Virus record (IMG/VR): IMGVR_UViG_3300012533_000005
Direction: 5' to 3' (one strand)
DNA from: a virus
Lineage: Duplodnaviria; Heunggongvirae; Uroviricota; Caudoviricetes
DNA length: 64,000 bases
Shown in pieces: positions 17,684 to 61,765 of the stretch. A program made the translations under genes and the position numbers. The notes beneath the pieces are model-generated. The model made no database searches. It was not told the origin of the DNA and was given only the letters and a program-made list of their open reading frames with translations. Every line of letters starts with the position of its first letter. The first letter of the stretch is position 1.

Positions 17684-17693
17684 TAAATAAATT

Positions 17694-18370: not shown

Positions 18371-18372
18371 TA

Positions 18373-18663: not shown

Positions 18664-18665
18664 AA

Positions 18666-40340: not shown

Positions 40341-41417
40341 TTATTCGTCTTTAACCGAAAATTTTGGAGTTGAAGTCTTGTCATTACCTCTTGAAATATT
40401 AATATAGTAGTCATTACCTCCTTGAACTATTTCATAACCAAATGTGTTATCTGCACTTGATAATATGCCTTTTAAAACACTAAGAGGAATATATTTCCAA
40501 TGTAACATTTGAAATGTGCTATTGATAATGTCCATTATGCTTTTTGAGTAATCTTCAATATATTTTTGAGGAGAAACTGGAATTATTTGTTCAGGAACGT
40601 ATTGAAGGTTTTGTTGCTTATGAACATCTTGGAAATGATTGCTCTTATTAAGCATTTCATAATGTATCTGTTTGTTTTCAGTAATTCCTTTAGGTTGATT
40701 ATTGCTAATGCTAGAAACTGGATTGCTATGTATATGATGTTGGTAACTGCCAGTCGCTTCCCTTGCTATTATAGGGTTTTGCCCATGAGTAACTTGAGGT
40801 TGATTTGCATTTGTATTTGTATTATTGTTACTAGGCATTGAGTTCATTACATTGTTTATGTTACTAGCATCAATAACTGTTTTAGTATTTGTGTTATCGC
40901 TAACAACAGATACCCCACCTTTTACTTTTATTTTAAGTGTAATTAATTTATCTTTTTTGGGTTCAGCCCACTCTTTTAAGGCGTTAGATGCCTTAGTGTC
41001 TTTTTCAATAATAGTAGCAACTAACTGAACCATCATAGGGTTTTGAGTTAATGTAGTGAAGTCACTAACGAAATCATTTACAAGATTCAAAATATCCTGT
41101 GGTAATCTTTGAATATCAATATTGTATTCATCTATGATACCTCCTGTTTGAGTTTTTTGCTCTGACTTAGGAAAAGGAATAGCATCTTTTAGCTGCTCAT
41201 TTCCGTAAATTTCCTTTATCAACAAATCAGTTTCGTTTAACTTTGGCTTAACCGACTCATTATTTTTAGTTTCTTTTTTATCTTCAGCCTTTAAAGACTC
41301 TTTCTTATTGATAACGTTTTTTTCTTCTTTAATTGATGGTCGCCCACGACTAGCCTTATCATCCGTGATTTTTTTATTATCGGAATCTTTTTTCTTTTTA
41401 TCGTTATTTTTTGCCAT
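40341..41417 (-). CDS. minus-strand protein with N-terminal AT-hook (RGRP) and Asn/Gln-rich low-complexity regions
   Basis: MAKNNDKKKKDSDNKKITDDKASRGRPSIKEEK. The only convincing minus-strand gene in the window. Confidence 0.55.
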   Translation of the reverse strand: MAKNNDKKKKDSDNKKITDDKASRGRPSIKEEKNVINKKESLKAEDKKETKNNESVKPKLNETDLLIKEIYGNEQLKDAIPFPKSEQKTQTGGIIDEYNIDIQRLPQDILNLVNDFVSDFTTLTQNPMMVQLVATIIEKDTKASNALKEWAEPKKDKLITLKIKVKGGVSVVSDNTNTKTVIDASNINNVMNSMPSNNNTNTNANQPQVTHGQNPIIAREATGSYQHHIHSNPVSSISNNQPKGITENKQIHYEMLNKSNHFQDVHKQQNLQYVPEQIIPVSPQKYIEDYSKSIMDIINSTFQMLHWKYIPLSVLKGILSSADNTFGYEIVQGGNDYYINISRGNDKTSTPKFSVKDE

Positions 41418-46400: not shown

Positions 46401-49063
46401 AAGAATATTTATCAAAAGGCAATAGCTTCTTTGATGGCGGACAAATAGAAACAAAGTATTATCTTTTATTAAAGAATAATAAACCAATATTTAGGACTAA
46501 ATTTTCAGGTTATAATATTGAAACAGAGCAGGATATGTCTGATATGCTGGATAAGTTACAGGATATGGATTATATTTTAAAGCCAGTAACAGAAGATGAA
46601 TACAAAGAATTTAAATACAGCGACATTGATAAGAAGGATTTAGCAGAATTTACTCAAAATTTTAATTATTTTAAAAAAGGCGGGGAGGTTAAGCGAGATG
46701 GGAAGATTGAATTTAGAAGAAACCGATTGCCTAGAAGGGATATTTATGAATTTGCTAAGATGGTAAAGACAAAATACCCTAAAGTTTGGGCAAAAGGCGG
46801 TAATATATTCGGTAATGAGGCATTTAATAGGCTTGATAAGGTCATTAAGCGTGGTTATTGGTTACCAAATGAGGAATGGATGCAGATTAAGTGGCAAAGC
46901 TACATAGCACGACACCATAAGGATTTTAGAATTGAAGGGGTTGTAGCTATGTTAAAATGGATAGCCACTACTGACAAAGGTTGGAGGTATATGAAGAACC
47001 TAATCAACGAAGAAATTAAAAAGCAATACCCTAATGCTGACGATAATTACAAATATGGCGGTGCAGTCGAATTACAAAAAAAAGTTTTACTAGCACCAAA
47101 TGGGAAACCAACAAATTTAACCCCCGAACAATATAAATTAGTTCGCACTCCTGAATTTAAAGCTTGGTTCGGTGATTGGGAAAAATTAGCTAATGTTATT
47201 ATCAAAGATTCTGCAATAGATGAAATTACTTTGCGTAACATTTCAAATGATGTTTCAAAGGTTGTTGATGAAAACGGAGAGCCTGTTGTCTGCTTTCACG
47301 GAAGCAATAATGATTTTAATGAGTTTAGGAGTGATGTAGGTTATTCAACCGACAAGGGATATTATGGAAAGGGATTTTATTTTACATTTAATACAAATGG
47401 AGAGTGGATGAAGTTTATGAAGGGAGAGGCAGGTTATTATGGTTCAATAGTTAAAGAGTTTTTTATTAAATCATTAAACCCTTTTGATATTAGTGAACTG
47501 TCAGAATATAAAGGTATTAAGATTAGTTATGTTGGAACTGAAACGATAGTTTTTTTGAGCAATATTGCCAAGAGATTTCCTGAACTTGCAGATAGTATTT
47601 TTTTAGAAAAGGAAAAGTGGAACGAGAAAGAACAGCTATACGATATAATAGATGTTCCTATTAGCGTATTACCCGAATTAATAAGCAAATATCAAAAGCT
47701 ATTAAAAACATTTATATTTGAAGATGGTAGGGGTAATAAGATGAAGTCGGGATATGTAAAAAGTGAAATAGTAGAATATGATTACACAAGTACTGGTGGT
47801 AAAAAAGGTTCTTATGAAAGACATGATGATTTAGGTGGGCGTTATTCAGAAGGAATAAGTGATACTGAGGTTGAAATTATGTTGATTGTAAGTGCAATAG
47901 AAAAATATGATGGCATTAAGGCAAATTATCATCCCGAAGGATATATGACAAGAAACCCTGAAATTACAAATGCTATAAAAAAGAATCATGATAGTATTAT
48001 GACAACTAAAAGTGGTGATGAAATTGTAGTTTTTGAGCCTACTCAAATAAAATTGGCTGACGGAACAAATACGACGTTTGACAGTATGAATCCTGATATA
48101 AGGTTTTCAAAAGGTGGTGGATTAGAACTTGAATTAGTTGAAACATATTACGTTAAACATGAAAATGGTAATGATTACCTTGCCTTTAATAACGAATTTG
48201 ATGGAGAGCGTAATGTTTTTCGTTTATCTAAAGATTTCGATGTCGAGTTTGGATATACTGATACTGTTGGTGTATTTATGTACACCGAAACATACATGAA
48301 GCGTATAATAGCAGAGTATTTTCGTAAAGTTTCGTTTGTTAAGTTTGGAAATTTATTTAGAAAATATATTGATGATAAATTCTCTCAAGAATATAACTTA
48401 CAAGACCTATCTAAAACATATAAATGGAGCGAGAAAGCTTCATATATAATTGGTGATGGAAGTTACTATATTAATAATCAAAAAAACTTTATTGATTTTT
48501 GTAAAGAAGCAAAAATTAAGATACCGTCATTACCTAATAAAGAAAGTGTAAAATTTGATAATGGTGGTGGAGTAGAAAATAAAAAAATAAGAGATTTTAA
48601 AGAAATAAAAAACTTTAAATACGCCTCTTTAGGTTCACAATATATTGATATGTTGGATGATAATGCTTATGCCCAAGATAAAATTAATTCTAACAGATGG
48701 TTTGATTTAGTTCAAAAAAACAATAAAAAAGGCGGATTAACAGATAAAGAATTTATTGAGCTTAAAGATTTATCTGATAAAGTGGCAAGATATGATGAAG
48801 ATATGGAAAGCGGTGGCGAATTAGGTAAACAATGCCCTGTTGGTACTAAAGTACAGACATTAATATTCTCAAAGGATGATTTTTCAGAGCAAAAGGCTAA
48901 AGATTGGGCAAAGGAACATGGATATAAATATACAGGTGTTGATGAAAAAGAAAATACATACCGAATAAGACAAGCAGACCCTAAAGATTTTGTAAAAGAC
49001 ATATTTAGAACTATCGAATTTAAAAAAGGAATTAAAGCTGTTGTAGCCTGTCCTAAAAATTAA
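43418..49063 (+). CDS. giant polyvalent protein (1881 aa) with two PARP-like H-Y-E ADP-ribosyltransferase (ART) domains, a GNAT acetyltransferase domain and recurrent GG linkers
   Basis: ART copy 1 at nt 43418-43912: VCYHGT...YFTS...GEEIVVFEPNQIKLADG, compare PARP HGS...NEYIVYD. ART copy 2 at 47087-48110: VCFHGS...GDEIVVFEPTQIKLADG. GNAT region about 44350-44700: IEVYEDYMGKGIAKKLINKA...LYSSLGFTE. At least 9 x(D/N/K)GG(G) linkers. Confidence 0.7.
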   Translation: MKLLAPNGKPSNLTPEQYRLVRTTAFKSWFGDWENDPENSSKVVDENGEPLVCYHGTRSDFNEFKRTRFGKLGEAMYFTSIEKDAIRYAKKYDGVRVIKAFLNSKNLAEISSPFAKKELPETYDGVMASKGVVGGEEIVVFEPNQIKLADGSNTTFDGSNPDIRFDDGGGIGIDVKTPIYTAIFINKDELIKKYKPVHKNIFYHHSTIEFKPQDVTDFPKGQETKVDITGRLTTDKVDVLLVNNQLSKKKNPHITLSTAEGVSPMQSDIEIEENLGNIIPLNDSINGIYDVFYGDNSKITSTDNGGNQVTLKYIKDGKELGYLNYIYDDKEPLSVGLDLHPFNFNSEMYIDFIEVYEDYMGKGIAKKLINKAISDANELGVVVVTLRRDSGLGCNYGSEYDNMLKKLYSSLGFTETWTEKDAKLSGGEKNICAMHLKVYNKYNNGGQMENEINEQEFNEAINTMIVYGKQNNRKDFIQAANFIRDFDLDNDVLIKAKYEEIKNQTKRLFEEQKKSIRESKEYKELPYNDYYHIMNDVTSYRYIEVIGRVPKDIQKIKKETKDLKGAYKKVVDDYIRSIELFVPIAIKVEKLKNKIVKKLPLTPEQKEDKAMKELRESIYESMPTINKEVLSKMVEEIKETFKPLEKIIYERETKRYHEIILKIIKDNEVYGNRLSDGLLPFYNDIFDYKTESRKSEPKIDFTGNTYYIQEHWLIDLSLKNNWKEVVSKVVLQEIEMLKYNMLYSIVSNFRKITAPIEKIEQLRLYVGEKGFEGAYKFTFKNGSSFVFQTQSISAGGYNIQKYHFRYLTHFTDIILSDGKKASSNIDIHKYFSVPDAEINPYTKIDDAPSQIEIAEIIVDAIKNGATSIDPKSIKDIKVDNDWMRRIIVSVTYMEDGIQQNQYVYLDLLSFKKSQTAAKKFLKDIDAEVYQIADSSKNNEVEKPSVDINDDSDKLKNELISVLKATYNLKDRSEKIGQKYSQANDAFKDKFGITYEEYLSKGNSFFDGGQIETKYYLLLKNNKPIFRTKFSGYNIETEQDMSDMLDKLQDMDYILKPVTEDEYKEFKYSDIDKKDLAEFTQNFNYFKKGGEVKRDGKIEFRRNRLPRRDIYEFAKMVKTKYPKVWAKGGNIFGNEAFNRLDKVIKRGYWLPNEEWMQIKWQSYIARHHKDFRIEGVVAMLKWIATTDKGWRYMKNLINEEIKKQYPNADDNYKYGGAVELQKKVLLAPNGKPTNLTPEQYKLVRTPEFKAWFGDWEKLANVIIKDSAIDEITLRNISNDVSKVVDENGEPVVCFHGSNNDFNEFRSDVGYSTDKGYYGKGFYFTFNTNGEWMKFMKGEAGYYGSIVKEFFIKSLNPFDISELSEYKGIKISYVGTETIVFLSNIAKRFPELADSIFLEKEKWNEKEQLYDIIDVPISVLPELISKYQKLLKTFIFEDGRGNKMKSGYVKSEIVEYDYTSTGGKKGSYERHDDLGGRYSEGISDTEVEIMLIVSAIEKYDGIKANYHPEGYMTRNPEITNAIKKNHDSIMTTKSGDEIVVFEPTQIKLADGTNTTFDSMNPDIRFSKGGGLELELVETYYVKHENGNDYLAFNNEFDGERNVFRLSKDFDVEFGYTDTVGVFMYTETYMKRIIAEYFRKVSFVKFGNLFRKYIDDKFSQEYNLQDLSKTYKWSEKASYIIGDGSYYINNQKNFIDFCKEAKIKIPSLPNKESVKFDNGGGVENKKIRDFKEIKNFKYASLGSQYIDMLDDNAYAQDKINSNRWFDLVQKNNKKGGLTDKEFIELKDLSDKVARYDEDMESGGELGKQCPVGTKVQTLIFSKDDFSEQKAKDWAKEHGYKYTGVDEKENTYRIRQADPKDFVKDIFRTIEFKKGIKAVVACPKN

Positions 49064-49087: not shown

Positions 49088-49477
49088 ATGATAAAAACAC
49101 TATATAATAAAGAATTAGTATATCCAAATAAAGACAACTACTATTTTAGTCATGTTATTCTTAGAAAAATAACCTATGTTTCAGAGATAGAATTGGTTGC
49201 TGGTAAAAATTATCAATTAGAGCTAAATGATGATTTTGGGAACATAGTTAGTGGATTGATTGAACATAAGTATTTAGGAGCTAAAGATAATCTTTTACAA
49301 TTTGAGGAAATTAGTGATGGTAATGTAAAAAGTATATATAAAGGCAATAGGATATACACGTATTATAAATATGATTTTGAAATGGATAATAATAGAGCTG
49401 ATTTATTTAAAATAATTGATGAAAAATTTGGATTAAGGATTCATTCTAGTGGTGAAATTAACTTTGACAGATATTAA
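49088..49477 (+). CDS. small protein of the C-terminal (D/N/S)-G-x-(I/F) family (129 aa)
   Basis: C-terminus ...IHSSGEINFDRY. Confidence 0.5.
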   Translation: MIKTLYNKELVYPNKDNYYFSHVILRKITYVSEIELVAGKNYQLELNDDFGNIVSGLIEHKYLGAKDNLLQFEEISDGNVKSIYKGNRIYTYYKYDFEMDNNRADLFKIIDEKFGLRIHSSGEINFDRY

Positions 49478-49478
49478 A

Positions 49479-49919
49479 ATGAGAAAATATTACATACCAT
49501 ATTTTAATAGTGGTCAATTAATATATCATGGTGATGAAAAAAAAATATCATCATTTATGCACCTGTTTAAATCTATTTATAAACAAAAAAATAAAATACA
49601 CTATTATGATATAGTAGTTGGTAATAGTTATATAGTGGAGCATAATAATGAATTTGAAAAAGCAACATTTAAAGGAGTTTGGTTAGGTAATGGATTTAAT
49701 ATATATACATTTGAACTTCATAGTAATTTAGAAAATATAGAAATTACGGCTACTGAAAAGTCTTTAGAAAGCGTAATGAATAGCAAGGTTTATATTGATT
49801 TGTTTTCAGATTCAGGAAATATAGGTAGTAAAAGATTTATTTTTAGACAGATAGACTCAAGTGCAAAGAGCTTTGAGTTATATATAAATTCTAATGGTAG
49901 CATAGAGGCTGTAAGATAA
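49479..49919 (+). CDS. small protein of the C-terminal NGxI family (about 146 aa; start trimmed)
   Basis: C-terminus ...YINSNGSIEAVR. Confidence 0.5.
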   Translation: MRKYYIPYFNSGQLIYHGDEKKISSFMHLFKSIYKQKNKIHYYDIVVGNSYIVEHNNEFEKATFKGVWLGNGFNIYTFELHSNLENIEITATEKSLESVMNSKVYIDLFSDSGNIGSKRFIFRQIDSSAKSFELYINSNGSIEAVR

Positions 49920-49924
49920 TTGAT

Positions 49925-50311
49925 ATGAAAAAAATAAATTTATTTATAAATAAAAATATCATTTACCATCATAAAAGAACAATGGATGTTAAATATCATG
50001 TATCTCCTGTTGTAACTAAAGATTACTATGCCGCATTGAGTTTTAAAATAGGCGAGTACTATTATTTACAAATTAGAGATAGGGATATTAAATTAAAATA
50101 TAAGTTTGTATCTCTAATTTCTCCTAATACTGGCTCATTTGAAGATGAAAATGGAAATTTATATACTTTTAAATTAATAAGTGATACATATAAATTTTAT
50201 AATAATCCGCCTTTCTTTAACACGGATGATGTTATGGGTAACTTTTTAGTATTTGGTATAGGAAATAAAGGTATTTATATTACATTAAATGGTAATATTG
50301 GTGAAATTTAA
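49925..50311 (+). CDS. small protein of the C-terminal NGxI family (128 aa)
   Basis: C-terminus ...ITLNGNIGEI. Confidence 0.5.
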   Translation: MKKINLFINKNIIYHHKRTMDVKYHVSPVVTKDYYAALSFKIGEYYYLQIRDRDIKLKYKFVSLISPNTGSFEDENGNLYTFKLISDTYKFYNNPPFFNTDDVMGNFLVFGIGNKGIYITLNGNIGEI

Positions 50312-50322
50312 TATGAATAAAA

Positions 50323-50574
50323 ATGAGTAGTAGAAAAAATCATATATCTAGCTTTAGTAATTCGAGTATTAAATTTAGTAATTATAGTCTAAGGTTTCCT
50401 CCGTCACATAGTCCTAAGACCAAATTTTGGAAAAAGGCTATTATTGTAGGTCGTTCAATGTTTGGCGTTTGGTTTGTGTCAAAAGAAGATACTTTGCAGG
50501 TATCTAAATTGGTTATTCATGGCGGTAATTCCTTTAAAATGTATGATGATGGTACTTTTTCAATAAATAAATAA
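50323..50574 (+). CDS. small protein of the C-terminal DGxF family (83 aa)
   Basis: C-terminus ...MYDDGTFSINK. Confidence 0.5.
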   Translation: MSSRKNHISSFSNSSIKFSNYSLRFPPSHSPKTKFWKKAIIVGRSMFGVWFVSKEDTLQVSKLVIHGGNSFKMYDDGTFSINK

Positions 50575-50581
50575 TATTAAA

Positions 50582-50827
50582 ATGGATAGAGAAAGCTATA
50601 TATTAGATTTATACAAGGATATTTTAACATTTGCTCCATTGAAACGTGATGGGCTAAAAATGAGTCCTTCTTTTTTTATTTATAAGGGTATGCTTACTAA
50701 ATACATTTTAATAGGAAAAGACTACAATAGGACTAATCAATTACATTTTACAACAAGACAGCAACCGAACACGAAAAGGGGTGAAACGGTTCATCTTATG
50801 GATGATGGGCAGATTTTGAGATATTAA
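50582..50827 (+). CDS. small protein of the C-terminal DGxI family (81 aa)
   Basis: C-terminus ...LMDDGQILRY. Confidence 0.5.
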   Translation: MDRESYILDLYKDILTFAPLKRDGLKMSPSFFIYKGMLTKYILIGKDYNRTNQLHFTTRQQPNTKRGETVHLMDDGQILRY

Positions 50828-50937
50828 GGCATTAATTACGTGGTTATTAATAAATTACTGCTAATAACTTGTTTGAAAAATACTAATAATAATAAGTATT
50901 TTAGTAGAAATTTTGATTAAATCAGTTTGATTAAATA

Positions 50938-51147
50938 ATGGCTGTAAAAAATTATATAAGTTTTTTTGAAAAAAATAATACACAATACATTGATTTTAAC
51001 ATAGGTAAGATTACCGCTTATGGCAAAGACCACGAATATTTTGAACTTACTGGATTTAGTAATATTAAGATTAGTAATGATAGAATAATTTTTAATGGTA
51101 AAAGATTAGTAACTATTAATGATAAAGGCGTAATAAGAGCAATTTAA
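50938..51147 (+). CDS. small protein of the C-terminal (K/D)GxI family (69 aa)
   Basis: C-terminus ...INDKGVIRAI. Also an internal IIFNGKRLVTI. Confidence 0.5.
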   Translation: MAVKNYISFFEKNNTQYIDFNIGKITAYGKDHEYFELTGFSNIKISNDRIIFNGKRLVTINDKGVIRAI

Positions 51148-51148
51148 A

Positions 51149-54100
51149 ATGGAATTAACACTACAAGACACAATAGCAAGTAAAAAGAAGCTTATAGGTA
51201 TGTATTTACCTATTCAAATAGCTATTTATGTACCAAGCACAAAGGATGCAAACGTACCTATATCAAAAGAAGAACTGCAAGGTAGGGTTGATGAAGTCCG
51301 TAAGTATTTAGCAAGTATGTTCGGTGGTTTCTCGTCTGAAGGAATGACTGGTGGCTATGTTTCTACATTCAAAGAATTAATCAAAGAAGATGTTGTTAGA
51401 GTTGTTGCTTTTTCTACAAAAGAGGCTTATGAAGATAATAAGAGAAGATTGATTACTCAAATATCAAAGTGGGCAAAGGAATGGTCGCAAGAGGCTATTG
51501 GAGTTGAATTTGAAAATGATTTGTATTATATCAATCAAGCTGAATCCTTTAAGGATGGTGGAAAAGTTGAACGTGAAGAAAGTAATTATCTTCAAGGATA
51601 TAATTTCAAGGATTACGAAGATATGATAGAAACCTTGAAAAAGGCAAAGAAAGAGAAATACGACTTAGGTGATGCTATTGATAGTCCCGAATCCCTTAAA
51701 TCAGCTATGGATAGTGCTGTGAAATTAGCAGAAAATATTAGAGATGAATATAGATATAACAACGATGGAGATAAAGTACTTGTTGTTAACGTAAAGACTT
51801 ATACGAGTGTTAGTGAAGATAAATCAATAGATTTAGCAAAGGAAGCTTTTAACCTAAATGAAGAACAAGTAGAACAATTACGAGAAGAATTTAATAGTGA
51901 GCGTGTAAATGATATAGTAAATGACTATATGGATTTACAACGTGAGGATGCAGAAGAAACTTTAAAGGATTTTATAAATCTTGAAATATGCAAAGATGAA
52001 GTTTTATTTGGTGGAAGAAGTGGCGGATATTTAATATTTCAGGAATATGACTTTTTTGATGGTAAAATAGAGCTTTTAGAGGATTATATATACACAAATT
52101 TTAATAGTATTGGTGAGTTTGAGTCAAATAGTTATGGTTCTTTTGAGCAATTCATTCAGGAGAATTTTAATGAGATTAGAGAAACTATTGGATTGATTAA
52201 CTATTATGAATTTGCTTTCGGTGTATTTGAGTCTTATGTAAAAATGTTAGTTAAGGGGACAGGTGAATATGCACAGGAAGAACTTGATTATCATGTTGAC
52301 CAATATATTGAAGAAAATATTAAAACAAAGCCTAAAAAGAAAAAAATGAAAAAAGTATCTGAAGAAACTATGGAAATGGGTGGTACTATTGATAGTGAAA
52401 GAAGATTTACCGAAGCTGATTTTAACAAGTTAGTTGATAGTAGTGATTTAAAGGGAAAATGGAATGGTTTTCTTTGGGAAATAATTAAGAAAGATGGTGG
52501 CGGTTATGTATATGGTAAGTTTAACCCGAAGTCAAAAGTTTTATTCATTACCCGTGAAAAAGACTTGACAAATCCATTAGTGCTTTGGTTACAACAAAAT
52601 TCAAAGGTTTCATTTGAGGAGTATCAAAAGCTAGGTAGTGGAGGTAATATTACTAAAAATTGGGATGAATTTGGTACTGGTGGAAGTATTGACGATGAAT
52701 TAAAAAACTTCGATATAAATAACTTAGATGCTTTTGAGCGTAAACAATACGACCATCTTATAAAACAAAGTTCAAAAGAAGAAGTATTACAAATACTAAT
52801 TAATAGTGTTGAAAGTGATTACTCTCAATTAAGCCCTGAACTTGCAGAAATAGCTGAAAAACAGAACCCTACTGGGTATAATAATGGCGGTTTAATTATT
52901 GATGAAAATTGGGGTAACGACGGCTCAACACCAAGTAATAATAAAGATTATAACGCTCTATATGAAATGTTTCCTGATAATCATGCAGAAGCAAAGGCTA
53001 TATGGAATCAATTAAGTGAAAAACAAAAAGAAGGATTTATTTATGACCTAGAGGTTACGGATGCAGCTAGTGAACATATCGCAGAGTCATGGTTAGAATT
53101 TATTAACGCATCATCACAGGAAGATTATTGGGAAAATGCAACTAATTGGGATGAAATGAAAGATGGCGGTGGAGTTGGTGAAGTAATAACCGATGTTGAT
53201 ATAGATTATTCTAAGGTACATGGAATTAAGGCTATTAAAATAAAACAAGGTAAAAATGGTGGTCATTCGGCTTTGTTTTCTTATTATACTGAAGAACCAA
53301 AGAGAGAAAAATGGGAAAAAATATCAAAATTTCAATATAATTCTTGGATGAAACAAGTAAAAAATAAGTTAGCTAATGGCGGTGGAGTTGGTGAAAGTAA
53401 ATACAAAAACGAAGATTTATTATCACAAAAAATATTTAGAATAGAGTATTTTAATTGGCTATCATCTTGGGAGCAATTTCATTTAATAAATAAATATAAT
53501 TTAGATGAAAATATTAGAACTAAATTTGATAATGGCGGTGGGGTTAGTGAGCAAAAGAATATAGCAAGGCAATTAGAAATAGTAAGATTATCGTCTATGA
53601 GTTTAGATGAACTCTTAGAAGAAGCAGGAATGACTTTAAGAGAATTTAAAGAATATCACTTAACAAGAGAAGCTTTAATAAAGGATTTGTCAGAGCCTAA
53701 CTTTTCTAATGGCGGTAAAATTAATAGTAAAAACCTAATTAAAGAACTTAAAAAAGGGTTGGTTGTTAGATTCCAAAGAGATACAATTAAGGGAGCAAGG
53801 TGGGAAACTAATTTAGATTATAAAGATGGTAAAATAATGTTTTGGCGTAGCTACTTCAACAATGAAATGGAAGAAGTTGCTGATAAAAAGAAAGAGTATG
53901 AAATGACAGAAAAACAAGCCATTGATTTATATAACAAAGATAAAGAATATATTATTGAGGAGTATTATGTGAGTGGTAATGTTGCTTTAGAGCCTTTAAA
54001 TGAAGATAAATACATATATGAAGTAGTTAAAGATGCTACCGAGCATTTAACTAATGAAAGTAAACATGATACTCAGGAAAAGTATAATAACTCTGATAAA

Positions 54101-55903
54101 TATAATTACACAGAATTTTGCGATAAGTGTGGAAGGGGTATAAAAGGAGAACCTGCATTTTTTATACACATGGTTGCTCCCGATTACGTTGTTCCTAATG
54201 ATAAAGAAAATGATAAATTAATAGAGGAATATTCTATTAAAGGAGTTGTTGAAGATTTAGGATGGCATCCAATAGGTTCTGAGTGTGTTAAGGCTTATCC
54301 AAAAAAATACCACTACCCAACAACAGCTCATGGTACAGTTTTTGTTAATGATGATAATGATTCAGATGATTCTAAAGTGAAAAAATTAGTAGTTAAGTTT
54401 GAAAAAGAAAAAGAATCAATAGCACTTTATGTAATAGCTGACTTAGTTTCAGAGCATTTCATGCGTAAAGATTATGATAAGAATATTGTTTGGGATAAAT
54501 TAACTGACGAGCAAAAAGTCAAATACAATGAGGATTATAAAGTATCTAAAAATGATTTTGAAAAACATATAGTATATGAGTTTGTTAAGCTTTATTATTC
54601 TAGTAAGAAAATAAAGGAAAGATGTAAAGGTCAATCAAAACAAACAATAGAAAGTATTAAATCTGTTATGTATGATATTGCTAAAGAATATGATACAGAT
54701 AAGTTCCCGAAAGTTTCTAAAGTTGAAAGGTCTGTTTCTGATGAAGAAAAGCCAAAGCAAGAAGTAGCTAAAGAAATTAGAACAGCTCCTATTAAGGATG
54801 TTTCAGATGAATTAATTAATCAGGCTATAACAGAAGTACTATTATTACCTAAATATAAATACCTTGATAAAGATGAAGCTGATTTCTTATACATGGCATT
54901 TGCAAACTATGAGAATCAAAAGAATAATTATGGTGATTATGTTTATGAAATTAAATGGAGGTATGAATACGGAAGTAATGATGATAAGGCTAAAGAACAT
55001 GATGAAAAGCTAAAGAAATTTATTGAGGGTATGGATAAGGCTAATATTATCATGTTTAGTAATTATGATGGTACTATTGAGGCTGATAAAGCGGTTATTG
55101 ATTTCATTAATTCAGTAAGGGGTAGGGTATATACTCTTAAAAACAAGTCAGTAAGTACGGATTTGTTCCCTGAAACAGATATTACACCTAAATTGACTGC
55201 CGTAGAGAGTAAAAGGACTGTGTTAATGACTATATTAAATTTATACACAAAGACTACCGATAAAGAAAAAAAGGAAAAGTTATGGGCAAAAGTACAGGAA
55301 ATAAAACAACAAATAAAAGGCATGGAAAATCAGGAGTTTAAGCATGGTGGAGATGTTAAAATGACAAAATCCGATATGCTAAAAAAGCTCCATTCTTTAA
55401 GCAAACATAAAAACTCAAAAACAATAAGCGACAAGTATGAAAAATTAAATGCTGAATACAAGTCTAAAACAGGTGTTGATTTTGAGGGTGTTTTAAAGGG
55501 CGGTAAAGCGGATGGTATGGATGAAGCATCTTTAGCTAAGAAACATGGCGTAAGTGTTGCTGCAATAAGAAAACAGCTAGAAAAAGGTATTCAGGTTGAG
55601 AGAGAGCATATTGATAATCCTGCTATACAAAGAGAGATTGCCTTAGACCATATTGAAGAATTTGTTGATTATTACGACAGACTTGAAAAAATGGAAAGAC
55701 AGGCTAGTGTTAAGCATACCGTAAAAGCAATTAAAGGACTATCAAAATCTCAGATTAACTCAATAAGTAATTATATGAAAAAGAAAGGGTTTGATAACTC
55801 TGATTTTGATGTTTATGATAACGGAATGATTTTAATTTACAAAGATGTTGATAGTAAGGTTTATAAAGAGATTTCAATGTTCATTAAAAATAATGTAATT
55901 TAA
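51149..55903 (+). CDS. second giant polyvalent-type protein (1584 aa) with at least 11 x(D/N/K)GG(G) linkers and a Cys4 zinc-ribbon segment
   Basis: Linkers FKDGGKVE, MEMGGTID, YNNGGLII, KDGGGVGEV, ANGGGVGES, DNGGGVSEQ, SNGGKINS, KHGGDVKM and KGGKADG. Zinc ribbon CDKCGRG...GSECVKAY. C-terminus ...YDNGMILIYKDV. Confidence 0.7.
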   Translation: MELTLQDTIASKKKLIGMYLPIQIAIYVPSTKDANVPISKEELQGRVDEVRKYLASMFGGFSSEGMTGGYVSTFKELIKEDVVRVVAFSTKEAYEDNKRRLITQISKWAKEWSQEAIGVEFENDLYYINQAESFKDGGKVEREESNYLQGYNFKDYEDMIETLKKAKKEKYDLGDAIDSPESLKSAMDSAVKLAENIRDEYRYNNDGDKVLVVNVKTYTSVSEDKSIDLAKEAFNLNEEQVEQLREEFNSERVNDIVNDYMDLQREDAEETLKDFINLEICKDEVLFGGRSGGYLIFQEYDFFDGKIELLEDYIYTNFNSIGEFESNSYGSFEQFIQENFNEIRETIGLINYYEFAFGVFESYVKMLVKGTGEYAQEELDYHVDQYIEENIKTKPKKKKMKKVSEETMEMGGTIDSERRFTEADFNKLVDSSDLKGKWNGFLWEIIKKDGGGYVYGKFNPKSKVLFITREKDLTNPLVLWLQQNSKVSFEEYQKLGSGGNITKNWDEFGTGGSIDDELKNFDINNLDAFERKQYDHLIKQSSKEEVLQILINSVESDYSQLSPELAEIAEKQNPTGYNNGGLIIDENWGNDGSTPSNNKDYNALYEMFPDNHAEAKAIWNQLSEKQKEGFIYDLEVTDAASEHIAESWLEFINASSQEDYWENATNWDEMKDGGGVGEVITDVDIDYSKVHGIKAIKIKQGKNGGHSALFSYYTEEPKREKWEKISKFQYNSWMKQVKNKLANGGGVGESKYKNEDLLSQKIFRIEYFNWLSSWEQFHLINKYNLDENIRTKFDNGGGVSEQKNIARQLEIVRLSSMSLDELLEEAGMTLREFKEYHLTREALIKDLSEPNFSNGGKINSKNLIKELKKGLVVRFQRDTIKGARWETNLDYKDGKIMFWRSYFNNEMEEVADKKKEYEMTEKQAIDLYNKDKEYIIEEYYVSGNVALEPLNEDKYIYEVVKDATEHLTNESKHDTQEKYNNSDKYNYTEFCDKCGRGIKGEPAFFIHMVAPDYVVPNDKENDKLIEEYSIKGVVEDLGWHPIGSECVKAYPKKYHYPTTAHGTVFVNDDNDSDDSKVKKLVVKFEKEKESIALYVIADLVSEHFMRKDYDKNIVWDKLTDEQKVKYNEDYKVSKNDFEKHIVYEFVKLYYSSKKIKERCKGQSKQTIESIKSVMYDIAKEYDTDKFPKVSKVERSVSDEEKPKQEVAKEIRTAPIKDVSDELINQAITEVLLLPKYKYLDKDEADFLYMAFANYENQKNNYGDYVYEIKWRYEYGSNDDKAKEHDEKLKKFIEGMDKANIIMFSNYDGTIEADKAVIDFINSVRGRVYTLKNKSVSTDLFPETDITPKLTAVESKRTVLMTILNLYTKTTDKEKKEKLWAKVQEIKQQIKGMENQEFKHGGDVKMTKSDMLKKLHSLSKHKNSKTISDKYEKLNAEYKSKTGVDFEGVLKGGKADGMDEASLAKKHGVSVAAIRKQLEKGIQVEREHIDNPAIQREIALDHIEEFVDYYDRLEKMERQASVKHTVKAIKGLSKSQINSISNYMKKKGFDNSDFDVYDNGMILIYKDVDSKVYKEISMFIKNNVI

Positions 55904-55933
55904 CATAATAATTAATAAGAAAATTTAATCAAA

Positions 55934-56170
55934 ATGATGAAGCAAGGTCAAACAAAATTTTCGGGTACACAAAGATTTAATACGTTTGGTAAAAATCAAA
56001 ATATGCTTTTTTATACAATAAAAAGTGGTAAGTTGGCTCAAGAATGTATTGTACTTGAAAATTTAAACGATAAATACTCTTACTATAAAGATATTCCTTT
56101 TAATAAAAATCTTCTTTTGAGTGACAGAATAACCGTTTTAACTGATGGTAATATAAAGGTTGGTAAATAA
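55934..56170 (+). CDS. small protein of the C-terminal DGxI family (78 aa)
   Basis: C-terminus ...VLTDGNIKVGK. Confidence 0.5.
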   Translation: MMKQGQTKFSGTQRFNTFGKNQNMLFYTIKSGKLAQECIVLENLNDKYSYYKDIPFNKNLLLSDRITVLTDGNIKVGK

Positions 56171-56199
56171 AAAATAACATAAAATAAAAACACACGACT

Positions 56200-57153
56200 A
56201 TGGATTCAGTAGATATAGCCAAAGAGGTAAATATAATTTCAAAAAGAGTTAATGAACAGCTTTCTGATTTTTATGAATCATTGAAAAATGATGTTGCCAT
56301 GAATAAGGCAAAGGCAAAATCGGGAAAAGATAATAGTAGACAAGTAAAAGTTTGTCCAATAATTCAGCAGATAGAGCCTATGAGCGAGTCTGAAAGACAA
56401 ATTGCAACTTCTACCATAGCTAATATTGAAAAAGTAGTTAAGGATAATCCAAATGAATTTGGCGGAAAAGATATTTCTGAAACAAGTTATACTGGAGGTA
56501 GCAAAGGTACTGGTGATGGAACTGGTAGAGAAACAGAATTGATTAGTGTTGGTATGCCAAAATGGATTCAAGAAATTGAAAACTCAGTTAAAGCCAAATT
56601 TAAAAGAAAAAAGAAAAGAGAGTATTTCGATGTAGAGGGTTTAGTTCGTGGCGTTACTAGGAAAAAGAAAGAAATGGGAATGAAAAGAATAGATTATGTC
56701 TATTTTATGCTTGATGTTAGTGGTTCAATGAGATGGAATACATTCAAGGGGCATAAATTATTAGATTTATTCGCATCATATATACCTCCAATGGCTAAAA
56801 GATTTGATGGTATGTGGGTTCAGGTTGATGGTCATAAAGTAATACCTACCGAGTTAAGTAAAATTGGCAAAGGTGAAATAAAATCTTTGATATTAGGCGG
56901 TGGCGGTGGTGCTGATTTTGAAGCAGCCTATAATTTTATAAAAAATGATATAGCTAAAAATGGAATTACAAATCCTGTTGTCGTTATGGCTTCTGATGCT
57001 GATGAACAATTCCGCTTTGAATTACTACCAAATACAATATTTGTAACTACAAGTAAAGGTTGGGATGGACACGCACATAAAAATGGATTAATAGCACAGG
57101 GTTTCCCTAACCCACTAAAAGGTCAAAAGGTTGTTATAATTAACATAGATTAA
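56200..57153 (+). CDS. von Willebrand factor A (VWA) domain protein
   Basis: The MIDAS motif DxSxS sits in VYFMLDVSGSMRWNTF in the C-terminal half. The N-terminal half has no recognised domain. Confidence 0.55.
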   Translation: MDSVDIAKEVNIISKRVNEQLSDFYESLKNDVAMNKAKAKSGKDNSRQVKVCPIIQQIEPMSESERQIATSTIANIEKVVKDNPNEFGGKDISETSYTGGSKGTGDGTGRETELISVGMPKWIQEIENSVKAKFKRKKKREYFDVEGLVRGVTRKKKEMGMKRIDYVYFMLDVSGSMRWNTFKGHKLLDLFASYIPPMAKRFDGMWVQVDGHKVIPTELSKIGKGEIKSLILGGGGGADFEAAYNFIKNDIAKNGITNPVVVMASDADEQFRFELLPNTIFVTTSKGWDGHAHKNGLIAQGFPNPLKGQKVVIINID

Positions 57154-57159
57154 AGCACT

Positions 57160-57381
57160 ATGGCTAAATCAAAACATATTACTAGATTCTCTTACTCTTT
57201 TCCTGTAAATGCAGTAGAGATTCTTTTTAAGAAAGAATTAATATCAATATATAAATCAAGAACAAGGGATGATTTTGGTTTAAATGATGATAAAAACACA
57301 AGTTTTGAATCTCTATATTTAGATAGCATGAATGATATTAGTATAAAAAGTGATGGCAAATTAAAATTTGGTAATTTTTAA
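57160..57381 (+). CDS. small protein of the C-terminal DGxL family (73 aa)
   Basis: C-terminus ...IKSDGKLKFGNF. Confidence 0.5.
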   Translation: MAKSKHITRFSYSFPVNAVEILFKKELISIYKSRTRDDFGLNDDKNTSFESLYLDSMNDISIKSDGKLKFGNF

Positions 57382-57383
57382 GC

Positions 57384-57842
57384 GTGAGGATATTTAAATT
57401 AAATAGCGGTGATTTTAATTATGTTGGAAAGCATGATGTTACATCTAAAGAAACCCTTAAACAAGTTTATTTTAGCTATGGTCTTTTTTCACCCAGTTAC
57501 CCTAAGAATGAGCTTAAAAAATATTTAAAACAAAATGATAATAAGCTTAAATATGGTCGAACTAATATCAATAAGAATATAACATTAGGTAAAGAGTATC
57601 AGGTTGCTAATTTGGATTCTGATATAATAGTAGGAGAGGCTTATGGTGAAAAGCAAATTTATGTAAGAATATTACTAGATAATGGTGTTACAGATGAAAT
57701 TCCTCTTGATGATTTTGAACACAAAAAAATGGAAATTAAAATATTGGTTAATGATTATTATCCTACTAGGATTAATTTAAACTTACTCAGTACTAAAATA
57801 CTTATGATTAATAATGATGGATATATTGATATATTTAAATAA
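57384..57842 (+). CDS. small protein of the C-terminal DGxI family (152 aa; GTG start)
   Basis: C-terminus ...INNDGYIDIFK. Confidence 0.5.
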   Translation: MRIFKLNSGDFNYVGKHDVTSKETLKQVYFSYGLFSPSYPKNELKKYLKQNDNKLKYGRTNINKNITLGKEYQVANLDSDIIVGEAYGEKQIYVRILLDNGVTDEIPLDDFEHKKMEIKILVNDYYPTRINLNLLSTKILMINNDGYIDIFK

Positions 57843-57854
57843 TTATATTTTAAT

Positions 57855-58079
57855 ATGAATACTTCTTATAAGTTATTTAGTAGTGATAAGTTGGTACATC
57901 AAACTTTTATACCTGAAAGCCCGTTATATCCATCGTTTGATGTTTTTTCATTTATTATTAAGTTAGGTAAAAATCACGGAAATAAGTTTGATAATAAAAG
58001 CGGTCTTTGGCAGCTATCGGATGATGGATTTGCTATTACGACTAATTTTATAATTAAGAGTAATGGTGAAATAAGATAA
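57855..58079 (+). CDS. small protein of the C-terminal NGxI family (74 aa)
   Basis: C-terminus ...IKSNGEIR. Confidence 0.5.
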   Translation: MNTSYKLFSSDKLVHQTFIPESPLYPSFDVFSFIIKLGKNHGNKFDNKSGLWQLSDDGFAITTNFIIKSNGEIR

Positions 58080-58324
58080 TGAAATCAAAAAGAATTATAA
58101 CTGTATTTAAGGATTCCGAGATAGTTTACATAGGAAACACTCATGCCGTTATGAAAATTCCAACTCCTAAGAACCTGTATAAAATTGAAGATAGACACTT
58201 AAAAAAAGGAGGAAAAAAGTTCGGGATAACTACAACAATTAATGAAGGATTGATGTTTTTTGGTGCTGCTAATCCTCATTTTGGGCTGATATTTAACGAT
58301 AAAGGAACATTCTCTGTGTTTTAA
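58079..58324 (+). CDS. small protein of the C-terminal (K/D)GxF family (81 aa)
   Basis: C-terminus ...FNDKGTFSVF. Confidence 0.5.
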   Translation: MKSKRIITVFKDSEIVYIGNTHAVMKIPTPKNLYKIEDRHLKKGGKKFGITTTINEGLMFFGAANPHFGLIFNDKGTFSVF

Positions 58325-58340
58325 AATTGCTGATAAATAA

Positions 58341-58634
58341 ATGATTATCATAAATAAAATAAATCTTCTAAATAACCATAATAAGTGGATAGTATTTGCT
58401 AATAATGGTGTTAATTGGATTTATCGTATGGATGGCGACGAAGAAAGTGATGAAATTGAAGAAAGACAAAATACATTTCATTCAACAAATGTTTCTGACA
58501 TTGACTACGAGGATGATTTAACGATACTTAATATAAAATACAAAGGAGTCATAACTAGGAACTCAAGGCATGATAACGGAAAGAGGATAGTAATAAGGGA
58601 TAGTGGTGATATTTTTTGCAATATTATACATTGA
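58341..58634 (+). CDS. small protein of the C-terminal SGxI family (97 aa)
   Basis: C-terminus ...RDSGDIFCNIIH. Confidence 0.45.
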   Translation: MIIINKINLLNNHNKWIVFANNGVNWIYRMDGDEESDEIEERQNTFHSTNVSDIDYEDDLTILNIKYKGVITRNSRHDNGKRIVIRDSGDIFCNIIH

Positions 58635-58870
58635 AAATGTCAAAAAGTGTATTAATACGGGAGCTAAATAAATATAATAGTGTGTTTTTTAGAAATTCAA
58701 ACCTTAAAAAACCTGCTACTAAGTTTGATTTGATGCTATATAGGTCAAAGGGCGGTATAATGGGAGATAAAAGATTGATAACAGCGACTACTGAGCATCT
58801 TCAGATTAATATTAGAAAAGGCTGGAATCATTTAATGTTTAGTGATGATGGCTCAATAACATTGTATTAG
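58616..58870 (+). CDS. small protein of the C-terminal DGxI family (84 aa; the start may be M at 58637)
   Basis: C-terminus ...FSDDGSITLY. Confidence 0.45.
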   Translation: MQYYTLKMSKSVLIRELNKYNSVFFRNSNLKKPATKFDLMLYRSKGGIMGDKRLITATTEHLQINIRKGWNHLMFSDDGSITLY

Positions 58871-59035: not shown

Positions 59036-59605
59036 ATGTCGGATAATTTAGGAATATTCAATGAAGAAGAATTTGCTGTTATGAAACCTAAACAGCAAAC
59101 AACGACACCTCCACCCCCACCAAAAGACGATAAGAAAAAAAAACCTGAAGAAAAACCTGAAGATGAAAATCTTGATGAAATTCCTTTAAAGACAAAAGAG
59201 GAAATACTTGATGGATTAAAAAAAGCAGGTATCATTAAAGATGATGAAATTCCTGATGATGATTCTAATGAGCCTAAAGACGACAAGGGTAATGAAGATG
59301 GTGGTAATGAACCGAAAGATGATGAAGGTAAGGAAGATGGTGGCGAAAAGCCAACTGATGATAAGGGTACTGAGGATGGTGGTGAAAAGCCAAAGAAAAA
59401 AGGTAATAAAGGTCAGATTGAAGATATTGAGGGTGAAAAGAGGCGTGATAAAATAAAGGCTACTAGCATCATTAATAAAAAGATAAATGATTACGAGGAA
59501 GTATTAATAAAAGATGAATACGGAGTATTTAAATTACCTAATAGGGTTAAACAAACACTATTAGATGCTAAAAAAGACTTAGAAGCACTTAAAGAAAAAT
59601 TATAA
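59036..59605 (+). CDS. acidic repeat protein (189 aa) with poly-Pro and three ~13-aa KDD(K/E)G(N/K/T)EDGG(N/E)(E/K)P repeats
   Basis: The protein repeat is mirrored by a roughly 39-nt tandem nucleotide repeat at 59275-59400. PPPPP is followed by KDDKKKKPEEKPEDE. Confidence 0.55.
   Translation: MSDNLGIFNEEEFAVMKPKQQTTTPPPPPKDDKKKKPEEKPEDENLDEIPLKTKEEILDGLKKAGIIKDDEIPDDDSNEPKDDKGNEDGGNEPKDDEGKEDGGEKPTDDKGTEDGGEKPKKKGNKGQIEDIEGEKRRDKIKATSIINKKINDYEEVLIKDEYGVFKLPNRVKQTLLDAKKDLEALKEKL
59275..59400 (+). repeat. 3 x ~39-nt in-frame tandem repeat within the acidic protein gene
   Basis: ...gatggtggtaatgaaccgaaagatgatgaaggtaaggaagatggtggcgaaaagcca...gaggatggtggtgaaaagcca. Confidence 0.55.
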
Positions 59606-59635: not shown

Positions 59636-61765
59636 ATGCAAGAATCAGTTAAGCTTAATGATAATGATATGATTTTGTATCTATTAAATTTAATACGATA
59701 CGATATTCCAATCTTGATAGCAGGAAAATCATCAATAGGTAAGTCATATACCATGTTAGAACTTGCTAAACAATGGGGTATGCCAAATGCAGTACTTTAT
59801 GTTGGTTCTGAAAAAGCAGATAACATTGAGGGTTTACCAAAACTCATTCAAAAAGATGTAGATGTAGATACAAGCGAAAGTGTATTGGAATATTTTAAGC
59901 CTTATTGGTTTCCAAAAAGTGCTTTGATTCAAGCTGCTGTCGGAAAAGGACAGGAAATATTTGATTCAAAAATAAGACCATATCTAAAAGACAATACTCA
60001 AGATTTACGTTATGAAACCATAATGGGAATTTTATTTGCTATTGGAGATATGAAGTTTGATGGTTCTAATACAACCCAAACTTTTAATTTCATTGATAAA
60101 TCAAGACGAATAACCCCTAATGAAGATGTTGAACTTTTATCAAAAGAGGTTACATTTACAAGAGATTTAGTTAAAAAGGGTGAGGATATGCTAACTAAAA
60201 GTAATGAGTTATATGAATTATCATTATACCTATGTACTTTAGTTGGTCTTGGTAACTATTGGTTAATACTTGACGAATTAGATAAGGTTCAAGAGGAAGA
60301 AGCTGATAAGTTCGCACCGATGCTACACATTGTTCGTGAAAGACGTTTAAAAACTTATTCATTAAGAGAGCTTAATGATGGAAAAGGTGCTGATGTTGCC
60401 ATGAATGTAATAGGCGGTTCATATCTACCAATTTACAATTCAATAAAAAATAGCTTACAAAACAATCAATCTGTACTTGATACCCGTATAATAGCTATAT
60501 CAAATCAAACCAGCAACATTATAAATATTTCAGATGCTTTATTTAAGCGTTTTGTTCAGGTTGTTGTAAATGGTATTATCCAATTAAAACCAGTTGATAA
60601 AAAACTGAAGGATATTAGAGATTGCTTATATAAGATAGAAACTAGAATTGGCGGTGAGCAAGGTGATTTAAGTTTAGGTTATCTTCAGGAAATAAATCTT
60701 CAATGGCAATTTGGATTCTTACCAAGAATTTTAAATAATGGTGATACACAAGGTAATTTTATAAAACAACAATACGATACTGAGGTTGCTGATGTTTTAG
60801 CAATAGATAACGCTGATGTACGAGAGGAAAGATTAAGAGAGGTAAGAAGAAAAACAGCTTTATATAAGCTTGTTTATGATAATTTTGACGAGGATACTGA
60901 GGTTAAAGAAGATTCTGATGATGATGATAACGGAAAGCAAACAGTCCCTTCATTAGTAATGGATTGTTTAGTTGCTCAGATTACACCTACTATTGATGTT
61001 AAGGCTGAAGCAACGTCTAACCCTATGGATTTGATAAATCAATTTAAAGCAGATGGATATTCTGATGAAGATGCTGCAAAAGAGGTTTATGATACATTAA
61101 TGGAAAAGTATAGACTGCTTCCTAAAGAAAAAGAAAGCAGAAGGTTAGAAATGGAAAGATTAGTTGATTATGCTTTCTCTTTCATATCACATACTGCCTA
61201 TGCTGATGGTTATTCAGAAGAAAAGATTAAAAATAGTGTTCCGTATTCTCCATTAGAGATAAACAAATATTTAATTCCATTAATGATTAAGTTTACTCTT
61301 AAAGTAATTACAAAAGACGAAATATTAAGCCCTGATGTATATATATCATTCGATGATAAAGATGCTTTATTATCTCGTCATGCTGAACTTTGGGATAAAT
61401 TCGCAATTCCTGAACATATTGATAAAATAAAAGGCGACCCTGATTTAACTAATAAATTATTCTACGGTGGTGAAGATAGTTTATGGGGTAGCTCAGACCT
61501 TAATGCTGATGATTTCCAAAAATCATTTGTAAATTCTTATAATTCTGCAAACGCAGAGCTATTCGATGAATTTATTGAAGCTTATCTTGATATGGATAAT
61601 GATAAGAAAACTGAATTTTCTGATTTCATTGAATATATCAAAAAATATCGTTTAGCTGATATTGAAGATTTAAAGAGAAGGCAAGTAGATGGATTAAAAG
61701 TAAGAGGTGAAATATCTAAAGTACCTGCTTTAACTAAGAAATATAGAGATGCTTTTGGCGTATAA
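59636..61765 (+). CDS. P-loop ATPase, AAA+/MoxR-like (709 aa)
   Basis: Walker A PILIAGKSSIGKSYT. Walker B WLILDELDKV. The Asp-rich acidic insert EDSDDDDNG follows. Confidence 0.5.
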   Translation: MQESVKLNDNDMILYLLNLIRYDIPILIAGKSSIGKSYTMLELAKQWGMPNAVLYVGSEKADNIEGLPKLIQKDVDVDTSESVLEYFKPYWFPKSALIQAAVGKGQEIFDSKIRPYLKDNTQDLRYETIMGILFAIGDMKFDGSNTTQTFNFIDKSRRITPNEDVELLSKEVTFTRDLVKKGEDMLTKSNELYELSLYLCTLVGLGNYWLILDELDKVQEEEADKFAPMLHIVRERRLKTYSLRELNDGKGADVAMNVIGGSYLPIYNSIKNSLQNNQSVLDTRIIAISNQTSNIINISDALFKRFVQVVVNGIIQLKPVDKKLKDIRDCLYKIETRIGGEQGDLSLGYLQEINLQWQFGFLPRILNNGDTQGNFIKQQYDTEVADVLAIDNADVREERLREVRRKTALYKLVYDNFDEDTEVKEDSDDDDNGKQTVPSLVMDCLVAQITPTIDVKAEATSNPMDLINQFKADGYSDEDAAKEVYDTLMEKYRLLPKEKESRRLEMERLVDYAFSFISHTAYADGYSEEKIKNSVPYSPLEINKYLIPLMIKFTLKVITKDEILSPDVYISFDDKDALLSRHAELWDKFAIPEHIDKIKGDPDLTNKLFYGGEDSLWGSSDLNADDFQKSFVNSYNSANAELFDEFIEAYLDMDNDKKTEFSDFIEYIKKYRLADIEDLKRRQVDGLKVRGEISKVPALTKKYRDAFGV

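Follow-up and report, generated by a model that had tools for sequence, protein, structure and literature searches.

A clade-restricted set of small phage proteins ending in a predicted C-terminal β-hairpin, encoded in two hypervariable slots beside predicted polyvalent effectors

The internal proteins of T-even phages (IPI, IPII, IPIII and those of the polymorphic IP locus) are many small, mostly basic, mutually dissimilar proteins encoded at a hypervariable locus, with a short conserved element at one terminus as their main common feature; injected counter-defence functions are linked to them (PMC3012670). Polyvalent proteins have been predicted to act as effectors that are packaged and injected (Iyer et al. 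2017, PMC5512222). The island analysed here resembles the former and contains the latter; it lies in a 64,000-nucleotide stretch of a virus of the Caudoviricetes (IMG/VR record IMGVR_UViG_3300012533_000005; the whole stretch is called the window), where thirteen small open reading frames (ORFs), tightly packed on the + strand at 49088-58870, encode proteins that all end in the same short, glycine-containing signature. These are best read as small, soluble, mostly basic proteins of an uncultured large-phage lineage that make up a family or superfamily. We see about an even chance that they form a clade-restricted, fast-diverging family of small β-rich accessory proteins occupying two hypervariable slots, with the C-terminal hairpin as a structural frame.

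All thirteen ORFs listed in a first-pass annotation of the window are present with the C-termini quoted there, and its claim that their signature lies far beyond chance holds against both shuffled sequences and other ORFs. Scored as [DNSK]-G-x-[IFL] within the last 14 residues, the pattern occurs in 13/13 ORFs of the block and in 1/96 of the other non-nested + strand ORFs of at least 50 aa in the same 64-kb window (Fisher p 6e-16). At the background rate of 0.035 per protein (~3.5%, in an AT-rich genome) the binomial probability of 13/13 is 1e-19, and 20,000 residue shuffles of the thirteen proteins gave a maximum of 5 matches per shuffle. Counted from the C-terminus, the Gly stands at residue 4 to 9 in all thirteen proteins.

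A composition of ~30% GC raises the content of N, K, I, D and F, and the signature could on that ground be suspected to be an artefact of composition, of an overlapping DNA signal (promoter, ribosome-binding site or terminator), of non-coding ORFs or of stop reassignment; this explanation is refuted by the background of 1/96 in the same genome, by shuffles that never exceed 5/13, and by the behavior of the DNA itself. The conserved Gly is encoded by GGT, GGC, GGA and GGG and the Ile by ATT and ATA across the block, therefore the constraint acts on the protein and not on the DNA. No nucleotide-level motif common to the thirteen gene ends was found, the upstream regions have only an A-rich stretch in common, and matches to sigma-70-type promoters and to terminators stay at chance level. 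The ORFs and their motif are also kept at the amino-acid level in relatives whose VWA-like protein, encoded within the island, is 43-65% identical. A reassigned stop codon splitting a larger gene is ruled out because TAA is the stop in 11/13 block ORFs and the adjoining ORFs of 1881 aa and 1584 aa are uninterrupted.

Conservation of the motif extends beyond the window to related loci of uncultured phages. Homologues of the VWA-like protein with 43-65% identity led to syntenic loci (L007, L009, L011, L012, L013, L016, L019, L020 and L021) in which small ORFs fill the same two slots and carry the same hairpin ending; examples of these C-termini are INKDGTIRAF, ITPEGIIKVV, LSPNGKLSIGKK, ILSDDGKFISL and IDIDSDGSIE. 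The pattern of the first-pass annotation, which had been defined on the window alone, is present in 26/43 island ORFs of independent loci versus 1/13 outside the islands; a fuller pattern applied to seven loci is present in 51/56 island ORFs versus 1/86 outside (p = 1.5e-31), and the single outside match is itself a paralogue. The hairpin extends to L020 (VWA protein 49% identical) and L021 (43%). Between ~5 and ~17 small ORFs are found per locus; phmmer detects orthologues for 3/13 window proteins (55934, 57855 and 58637), among them L011 8225-8443 for 57855 and L011 9373-9618 for 58637, while 49479 is linked by hhalign only. Copy number and content shift from locus to locus while the flanking genes stay 43-65% identical, which defines the two slots as hypervariable.

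The full motif is φ-x-φ-(N)-(D/S/P)-(D/N)-G-x-(I/F)-x-φ (φ, hydrophobic), that is, a strand, a four-residue turn and a second strand. Column counts were taken from 48 sequences of the window and four related loci, selected for and anchored on the Gly:

Position -6: L/I/V, 37/48.
Position -4: I/L/F, 40/48.
Position -3: N commonest, 16/48.
Position -2: D/S/P, 32/48.
Position -1: D/N, 26/48; K, 5/48.
Position 0: G, 48/48 by construction, the set being chosen and anchored on this Gly.
Position +2: I/F, 43/48.
Position +4: V/I/A commonest, 20/48.

This motif reads as a tight β-hairpin. Loops of the form N-(P/S/D)-(D/N)-G are the preferred sequence of hairpins with a type I turn and a G1 bulge, which would explain both the invariant Gly and the alternating hydrophobic residues on either side. 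AlphaFold2 (AF2) modeling of one subfamily, termed GQ, predicts strands at residues 66-68 and 74-76 either side of Gly72 in an all-β protein, with a best predicted local distance difference test score (pLDDT) of 72.6; an earlier run from a 14-sequence alignment reached pLDDT 51 and was unusable. The shared terminal β-strand proposed in the first-pass annotation is thus modeled, for this one subfamily, as a β-hairpin. Tandem hairpin repeats were not found, with three internal motif copies in ~980 residues (3.1 vs 1.1 per 1000 aa); a hairpin-repeat protein of the MORN_2, WG_beta_rep or RHS/YD kind was rejected on these few internal copies and on the lack of Pfam repeat matches.

The thirteen genes and their hairpins are as follows:

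49088..49477, + strand: long class, 129 aa; hairpin LRIHSSGEINF, nt 49433-49465.
49479..49919, + strand: long class, 146 aa from ATG 49479; hairpin LYINSNGSIEA, nt 49878-49910.
49925..50311, + strand: long class, 128 aa; hairpin IYITLNGNIGE, nt 50273-50305.
50323..50574, + strand: short class, 83 aa; hairpin FKMYDDGTFSI, nt 50533-50565.
50582..50827, + strand: short class, 81 aa; hairpin VHLMDDGQILR, nt 50789-50821.
50938..51147, + strand: shortest member, 69 aa; hairpin VTINDKGVIRA, nt 51109-51141.
55934..56170, + strand: GQ subfamily, 78 aa, starts MMKQGQTKF; hairpin ITVLTDGNIKV, nt 56129-56161.
57160..57381, + strand: short class, 73 aa; hairpin ISIKSDGKLKF, nt 57337-57369.
57384..57842, + strand: long class, 152 aa, GTG start; hairpin LMINNDGYIDI, nt 57801-57833.
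57855..58079, + strand: short class, 74 aa; hairpin FIIKSNGEIR, nt 58047-58076.
58079..58324, + strand: short class, 81 aa; hairpin LIFNDKGTFSV, nt 58286-58318.
58341..58634, + strand: family member, 97 aa, acidic; hairpin IVIRDSGDIFC, nt 58587-58619.
58637..58870, + strand: short class, 77 aa from ATG 58637; hairpin LMFSDDGSITL, nt 58832-58864.

Family members fall into two narrow size classes of ~70-95 aa and ~120-160 aa, with a range of 69-152 aa in the window; the pI is at least 7.9 in 11/13 block proteins. Two starts deserve comment: ATG 49479 fits the family N-terminal motif better than GTG 49449 (156 aa), and for the last gene ATG 58637, the start placed by independent gene calls, fits better than the TTG 58616 first annotated.

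Recognition of the thirteen as one set was assessed with a leave-one-out hidden Markov model (HMM) trained without close relatives of the held-out protein and scored against 313 decoys. The held-out window proteins rank 1, 1, 2, 2, 2, 3, 5, 6, 7, 9, 11, 19 and 29 (median 5th), and the best-scoring 'decoys' are island ORFs that the strict pattern had missed; these ranks show that a coherent set is retrieved. The strongest cases are 50938 (E = 1e-4, rank 1) and 49479 (E = 2.5e-4, rank 1), the latter also reaching an hhalign probability of 61% to paralogues in L009; 49088 and 58079 (each 12.2 bits, rank 2) and 57160 (11.5 bits, rank 2) follow, and 49925 is weakly recognized at 3.3 bits. The family also has an N-terminal strand-turn-strand motif, [FY]-polar-x(2-5)-φ-x-[YF], found in 29/52 proteins versus 5/90 (p = 2e-11); the N-terminus of the 50323 protein, KNHISSFSNSSIKF, agrees with it. 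The long class (120-160 aa) aligns over DL-x-(I/V)-G-x-x-Y, Y-x-F and the hairpin (alignment A6), the 49088 protein having both internal motifs in common with this alignment; the DL-x-(I/V)-G-x-x-Y ... Y-x-F arrangement (49088-50311 and 57384-57842) is missing from the short class and may represent an additional small β domain. A long-class profile searched against the PDB returned nothing significant.

Several results weigh against treating the thirteen as one fold with a structural hairpin. The N-terminal motif was defined post hoc; the AF2 model comes from one subfamily at moderate confidence, the four other models having pLDDT of at most 55; the best pairwise blastp match among the thirteen has E = 0.008; hhalign probabilities between sub-clusters do not exceed 61%, most of these alignments covering the hairpin only; and once the termini are removed, between-cluster similarity equals that of shuffled controls (4.5% of pairs above the 95th percentile). 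A common fold could not be established by profile-profile comparison of the sub-clusters (best 61%). The first-pass view that the proteins diverge outside the C-terminus is largely right, the middle regions sitting at shuffled level between clusters. A single family is partly shown, and homology over the whole length of the thirteen proteins is tentative.

No described family accommodates these proteins, in line with the first-pass annotation, which had recognized none. Pfam gives no match with E <0.01 for any of the thirteen; PHROGs v4, scanned with 12/13 (58637 left out), gives only matches with E of at least 0.015 to families of unknown function; NCBIfam 20 gives none for the 10 members scanned; and PDB sequences contain no relatives, the matches to a PH domain (PKD, E = 0.84) and to R.NgoVII (E = 0.21) not being significant. 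Among GenBank phages neither megablast of the block nor tblastn of the ATPase found a match. The C-terminal sorting domain of the Bacteroidota type IX secretion system (T9SS; TIGR04183/TIGR04131) was considered and rejected: the same 10 members have no NCBIfam match to it, the N-termini are polar or charged without a hydrophobic signal segment, and the whole proteins span 69-152 aa where the T9SS domain alone takes 70-100 aa. The proteins constitute an undescribed family without known homologues, of a familiar kind, namely a lineage-specific expansion of small phage accessory proteins.

The family marks an uncultured phage clade. Relatives of the VWA-like protein were not found in IMG/VR viral contigs or GTDB genomes, a metagenome scan added only 4 loci, and a conserved 436-aa protein has at most 33% identity to unrelated GenBank phages. 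At least 18 metagenome contigs have the identical sequence, and a fragment of the phage sequence was binned with a Flavobacterium metagenome-assembled genome; we infer a host among the Bacteroidota, with which the A-rich upstream regions free of Shine-Dalgarno sequences fit, and the clade is possibly associated with Flavobacterium. One metagenome contig (L004, 9573-14931) folds back on itself, mapping reversed to window 52297-46939; an inverted duplication or a chimera made in assembly is the probable cause.

Both slots are bounded by larger genes, as listed here:

43418..49063, + strand: polyvalent protein 1, 1881 aa, with ART-PolyVal copies and a GNAT acetyltransferase; left border of slot 1.
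51149..55903, + strand: giant protein 2, 1584 aa, with DUF5661 near the C-terminus (Pfam E = 3e-12); right border of slot 1.
56200..57153, + strand: VWA-like protein, 317 aa, with a D-V-S-G-S MIDAS-type motif; left border of slot 2.
59036..59605, + strand: acidic proline-rich protein, 189 aa, with orthologues in all related loci; right border of slot 2.
59636..61765, + strand: P-loop ATPase, 709 aa, with Walker A GKSSIGKS and Walker B ILDELD; conserved beside the island.

The left part of the island runs HNH endonuclease, topoisomerase IB, polyvalent protein 1, six small genes and giant protein 2; the right part continues with one small gene (GQ), the VWA-like protein, six small genes, the acidic protein and the P-loop ATPase, beyond which lie more conserved genes, including that of a ~2390-aa protein just outside the window. 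In polyvalent protein 1 the ART-PolyVal match to Pfam has E = 6.7e-31 and is accompanied by GNAT. The D-V-S-G-S motif is invariant in 14 VWA-like homologues (alignment A5); Pfam matches of these proteins to VWA_2 and VWA_CoxE are sub-threshold (best E 0.001, homologue P0021), one homologue is named 'VWA domain-containing protein' in a database source, and no PDB sequence matches to the VWA-like protein were found. The ATPase has a weak match to a PHROG labeled 'ATPase', and its synteny is kept in the related loci. The family pinpoints two hypervariable slots beside predicted injected polyvalent effectors, and slots of such a kind tend to hold anti-defence and host-takeover genes.

The giant genes show features of their own. 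GG/GGG linkers in the context (F/Y)-x-(D/N/K/S)-GG(G)-x-(V/I/L)-(E/D...) split both giants (43418-49063 and 51149-55903) into modules, GG being found at 9.5 per 1000 aa versus 3.6 in other window proteins; these linkers may mark the borders of domains or sites of processing. In the relatives, the polyvalent effector is split into separate overlapping ORFs in L012 (1-5630) and L016 (275-2752), with three tandem ART-PolyVal genes in L012 that share a ...VSINGIEYKKVFLRPEYKRL tail; in L007 (1-8757) topoisomerase IB, ART, PolyA_pol and DUF5661 are fused in one ORF of >3429 aa. An IS605-type OrfB/TnpB gene (397 aa) is inserted in the giant protein 2 homologue of L009 (6428-7845), reducing it to an N-terminal stub of 36 aa and a remainder of 579 aa with DUF5661.

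Giant protein 2 had been described as ending with the same flavor as the small proteins. This applies loosely: one φ-x-φ-xxx-G-x-I match starts at residue 1553 of 1584, however its Gly (1559) lies 25 residues before the end, and this one match is all that the giants hold, which is not above background. The C-terminus of giant 1 is a different, tighter K-K-G hairpin. A search with the family HMM through all 80 proteins of at least 200 aa from eight loci, every giant included, gave 4.5 bits as its best score, and phmmer linked no hairpin protein to a giant; on that HMM result the small proteins are ruled out as stand-alone modules of the giants. The GG linkers, in the form F-x-(D/N/K)-GG-x-(V/I), were rejected as the same motif, for they lack the preceding alternating hydrophobic strands and have another register.

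GQ proteins start M-x-(K/E)-G-Q-x-x-F, and the window member is 55934. In all related loci examined the GQ gene lies immediately upstream of the VWA-like gene, the two forming an invariant adjacent pair. The subfamily is rare: a set of 1.84 billion proteins (1.84e9) contains only 20 clusters of it at 50% identity, and in an alignment of 25 GQ sequences (A4) the hairpin Gly72 is the sole invariant column. Of the five GQ paralogues in L007, one lies displaced downstream, at 15161. The GQ member may be functionally coupled to the VWA-like protein, and the strict GQ-VWA pairing supplies a concrete candidate interaction for an otherwise opaque VWA/ATPase module.

This pairing bears on a different view of the hairpin, in which it would be a shared targeting or docking module, either a capsid-packaging signal or a β-augmentation handle for the VWA-like protein or the ATPase; we regard this as possible, if on the unlikely side. 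It takes up the first-pass proposal of a sorting, packaging, oligomerisation or donor-strand signal. In proteins whose middle regions lack detectable similarity, no other shared feature comes close in strength to the terminal motif, which is common to two size classes with different internal motifs; the proteins are small and mostly basic, their slots adjoin predicted injected effectors, and conservation of the neighboring VWA and ATPase genes is strict, with the GQ-VWA pair invariant. However, the motif is missing from the ends of the giants, which would be the chief cargo predicted, and the family HMM finds nothing in these proteins; the distance from Gly to the C-terminus varies (4-9 residues in the window, longer in some relatives), which makes recognition of a fixed free C-terminus unlikely; and the N-terminal motif is co-conserved. 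A version in which the hairpin is a MIDAS ligand faces the further difficulty that the residue before the Gly is not invariantly acidic (K, S, T and P also occur), which argues against such a role. In its most specific form, which is somewhat more doubtful, this view posits a portable, uncleaved C-terminal hairpin tag that would load changing small effectors into the capsid, or onto a VWA/ATPase machine, together with the polyvalent proteins, as the counterpart in a Bacteroidota-phage lineage of the T-even capsid targeting sequence. If the hairpin is such a docking or packaging tag, it would provide a simple means, transplantable from one protein to another, of loading phage particles.

The small genes stand in tandem arrays right downstream of multi-domain effector genes, with copy numbers that differ from locus to locus, an arrangement that by analogy resembles the immunity-gene arrays found after polymorphic toxins. 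The small proteins might on this basis be inhibitors ('immunity' or timing factors) that hold toxic polyvalent domains, such as ARTs, inactive until packaging; we think this improbable. The relative with the largest fused polyvalent protein (L007, >3429 aa) has GQ-type small genes only, half of the small genes in the window lie after the VWA gene and away from the effectors, and Pfam and NCBIfam scans show no similarity to known immunity families, the idea being purely analogical.

The reading of the hairpin as a structural frame is favored because the N-terminal motif is enriched, there are two size classes, the distance between Gly and C-terminus varies and the giants lack the terminal motif. 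In the mechanism proposed, the terminal strands would be the constant frame of a small sheet, and the unalignable middle, joined in the long class by the DL-x-(I/V)-G-x-x-Y module, would present a variable surface by which every paralogue meets a target of its own. Between phages the small genes turn over fast in number and sequence, while the flanking genes stay ~60% identical. Position and turnover suggest an accessory role in host takeover or counter-defence, and the small proteins may work together with the polyvalent effectors, or be delivered with them, in an early or injected context. Should the hairpin be only structural, the family would offer a compact scaffold for fast-evolving binders and a hunting ground for counter-defence proteins.

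Elsewhere in the window, a second and unrelated tandem family is encoded at 17408-18914 by five consecutive genes (82-121 aa, N-termini M..PEEI.., forming a phmmer cluster). All window genes but one lie on the + strand, and the cumulative GC skew climbs steadily across the window; the only sizeable minus-strand gene (40341-41417) encodes a low-complexity, K/N/Q-rich protein of 358 aa, around which the sign of the AT skew flips locally. ARAGORN finds no tRNA genes at 1-64000.

Comparison with described systems places the hairpin and its neighbors in three different contexts beside that of the T-even proteins. MORN variant, WG/KWG and YD/RHS repeats have a similar local logic, with alternating hydrophobic residues around a (D/N)-G turn; these form tandem arrays of many hairpins, whereas the window family has one conserved terminal hairpin. 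The DxSxS VWA-like protein beside a P-loop ATPase is like the pairs of MoxR/CoxD-type ATPases and CoxE-type VWA proteins, and one island VWA homologue has a sub-threshold VWA_CoxE match, although neither island protein reaches the Pfam or PDB threshold; this likeness concerns the context genes and not the small proteins, and we know of no pair of the MoxR/CoxD-CoxE type that is accompanied by arrays of small hairpin proteins. Polyvalent proteins share the island itself, as the flanking giants carry ART-PolyVal, GNAT and DUF5661 and the effectors are fused or split between relatives. The small proteins match no giant-internal domain and no Pfam LPD or polyvalent-associated family, and they differ from polyvalent modules as stand-alone genes without GG-linker borders.

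The internal proteins of the T-even phages have no sequence similarity to the window family, whose phage is known only from metagenomes. The T4 capsid targeting sequence is N-terminal, comprises ~10 residues and is cut off by the prohead protease, while the element in the window is a C-terminal β-hairpin with no known protease site; the N-termini here share the loose [FY]-polar...φ-x-[YF] pattern without a common cleavage-type motif. What the two systems have in common is a hypervariable locus of small, diverse and basic proteins, the pI being at least 7.9 in 11/13 of those encoded in the window.

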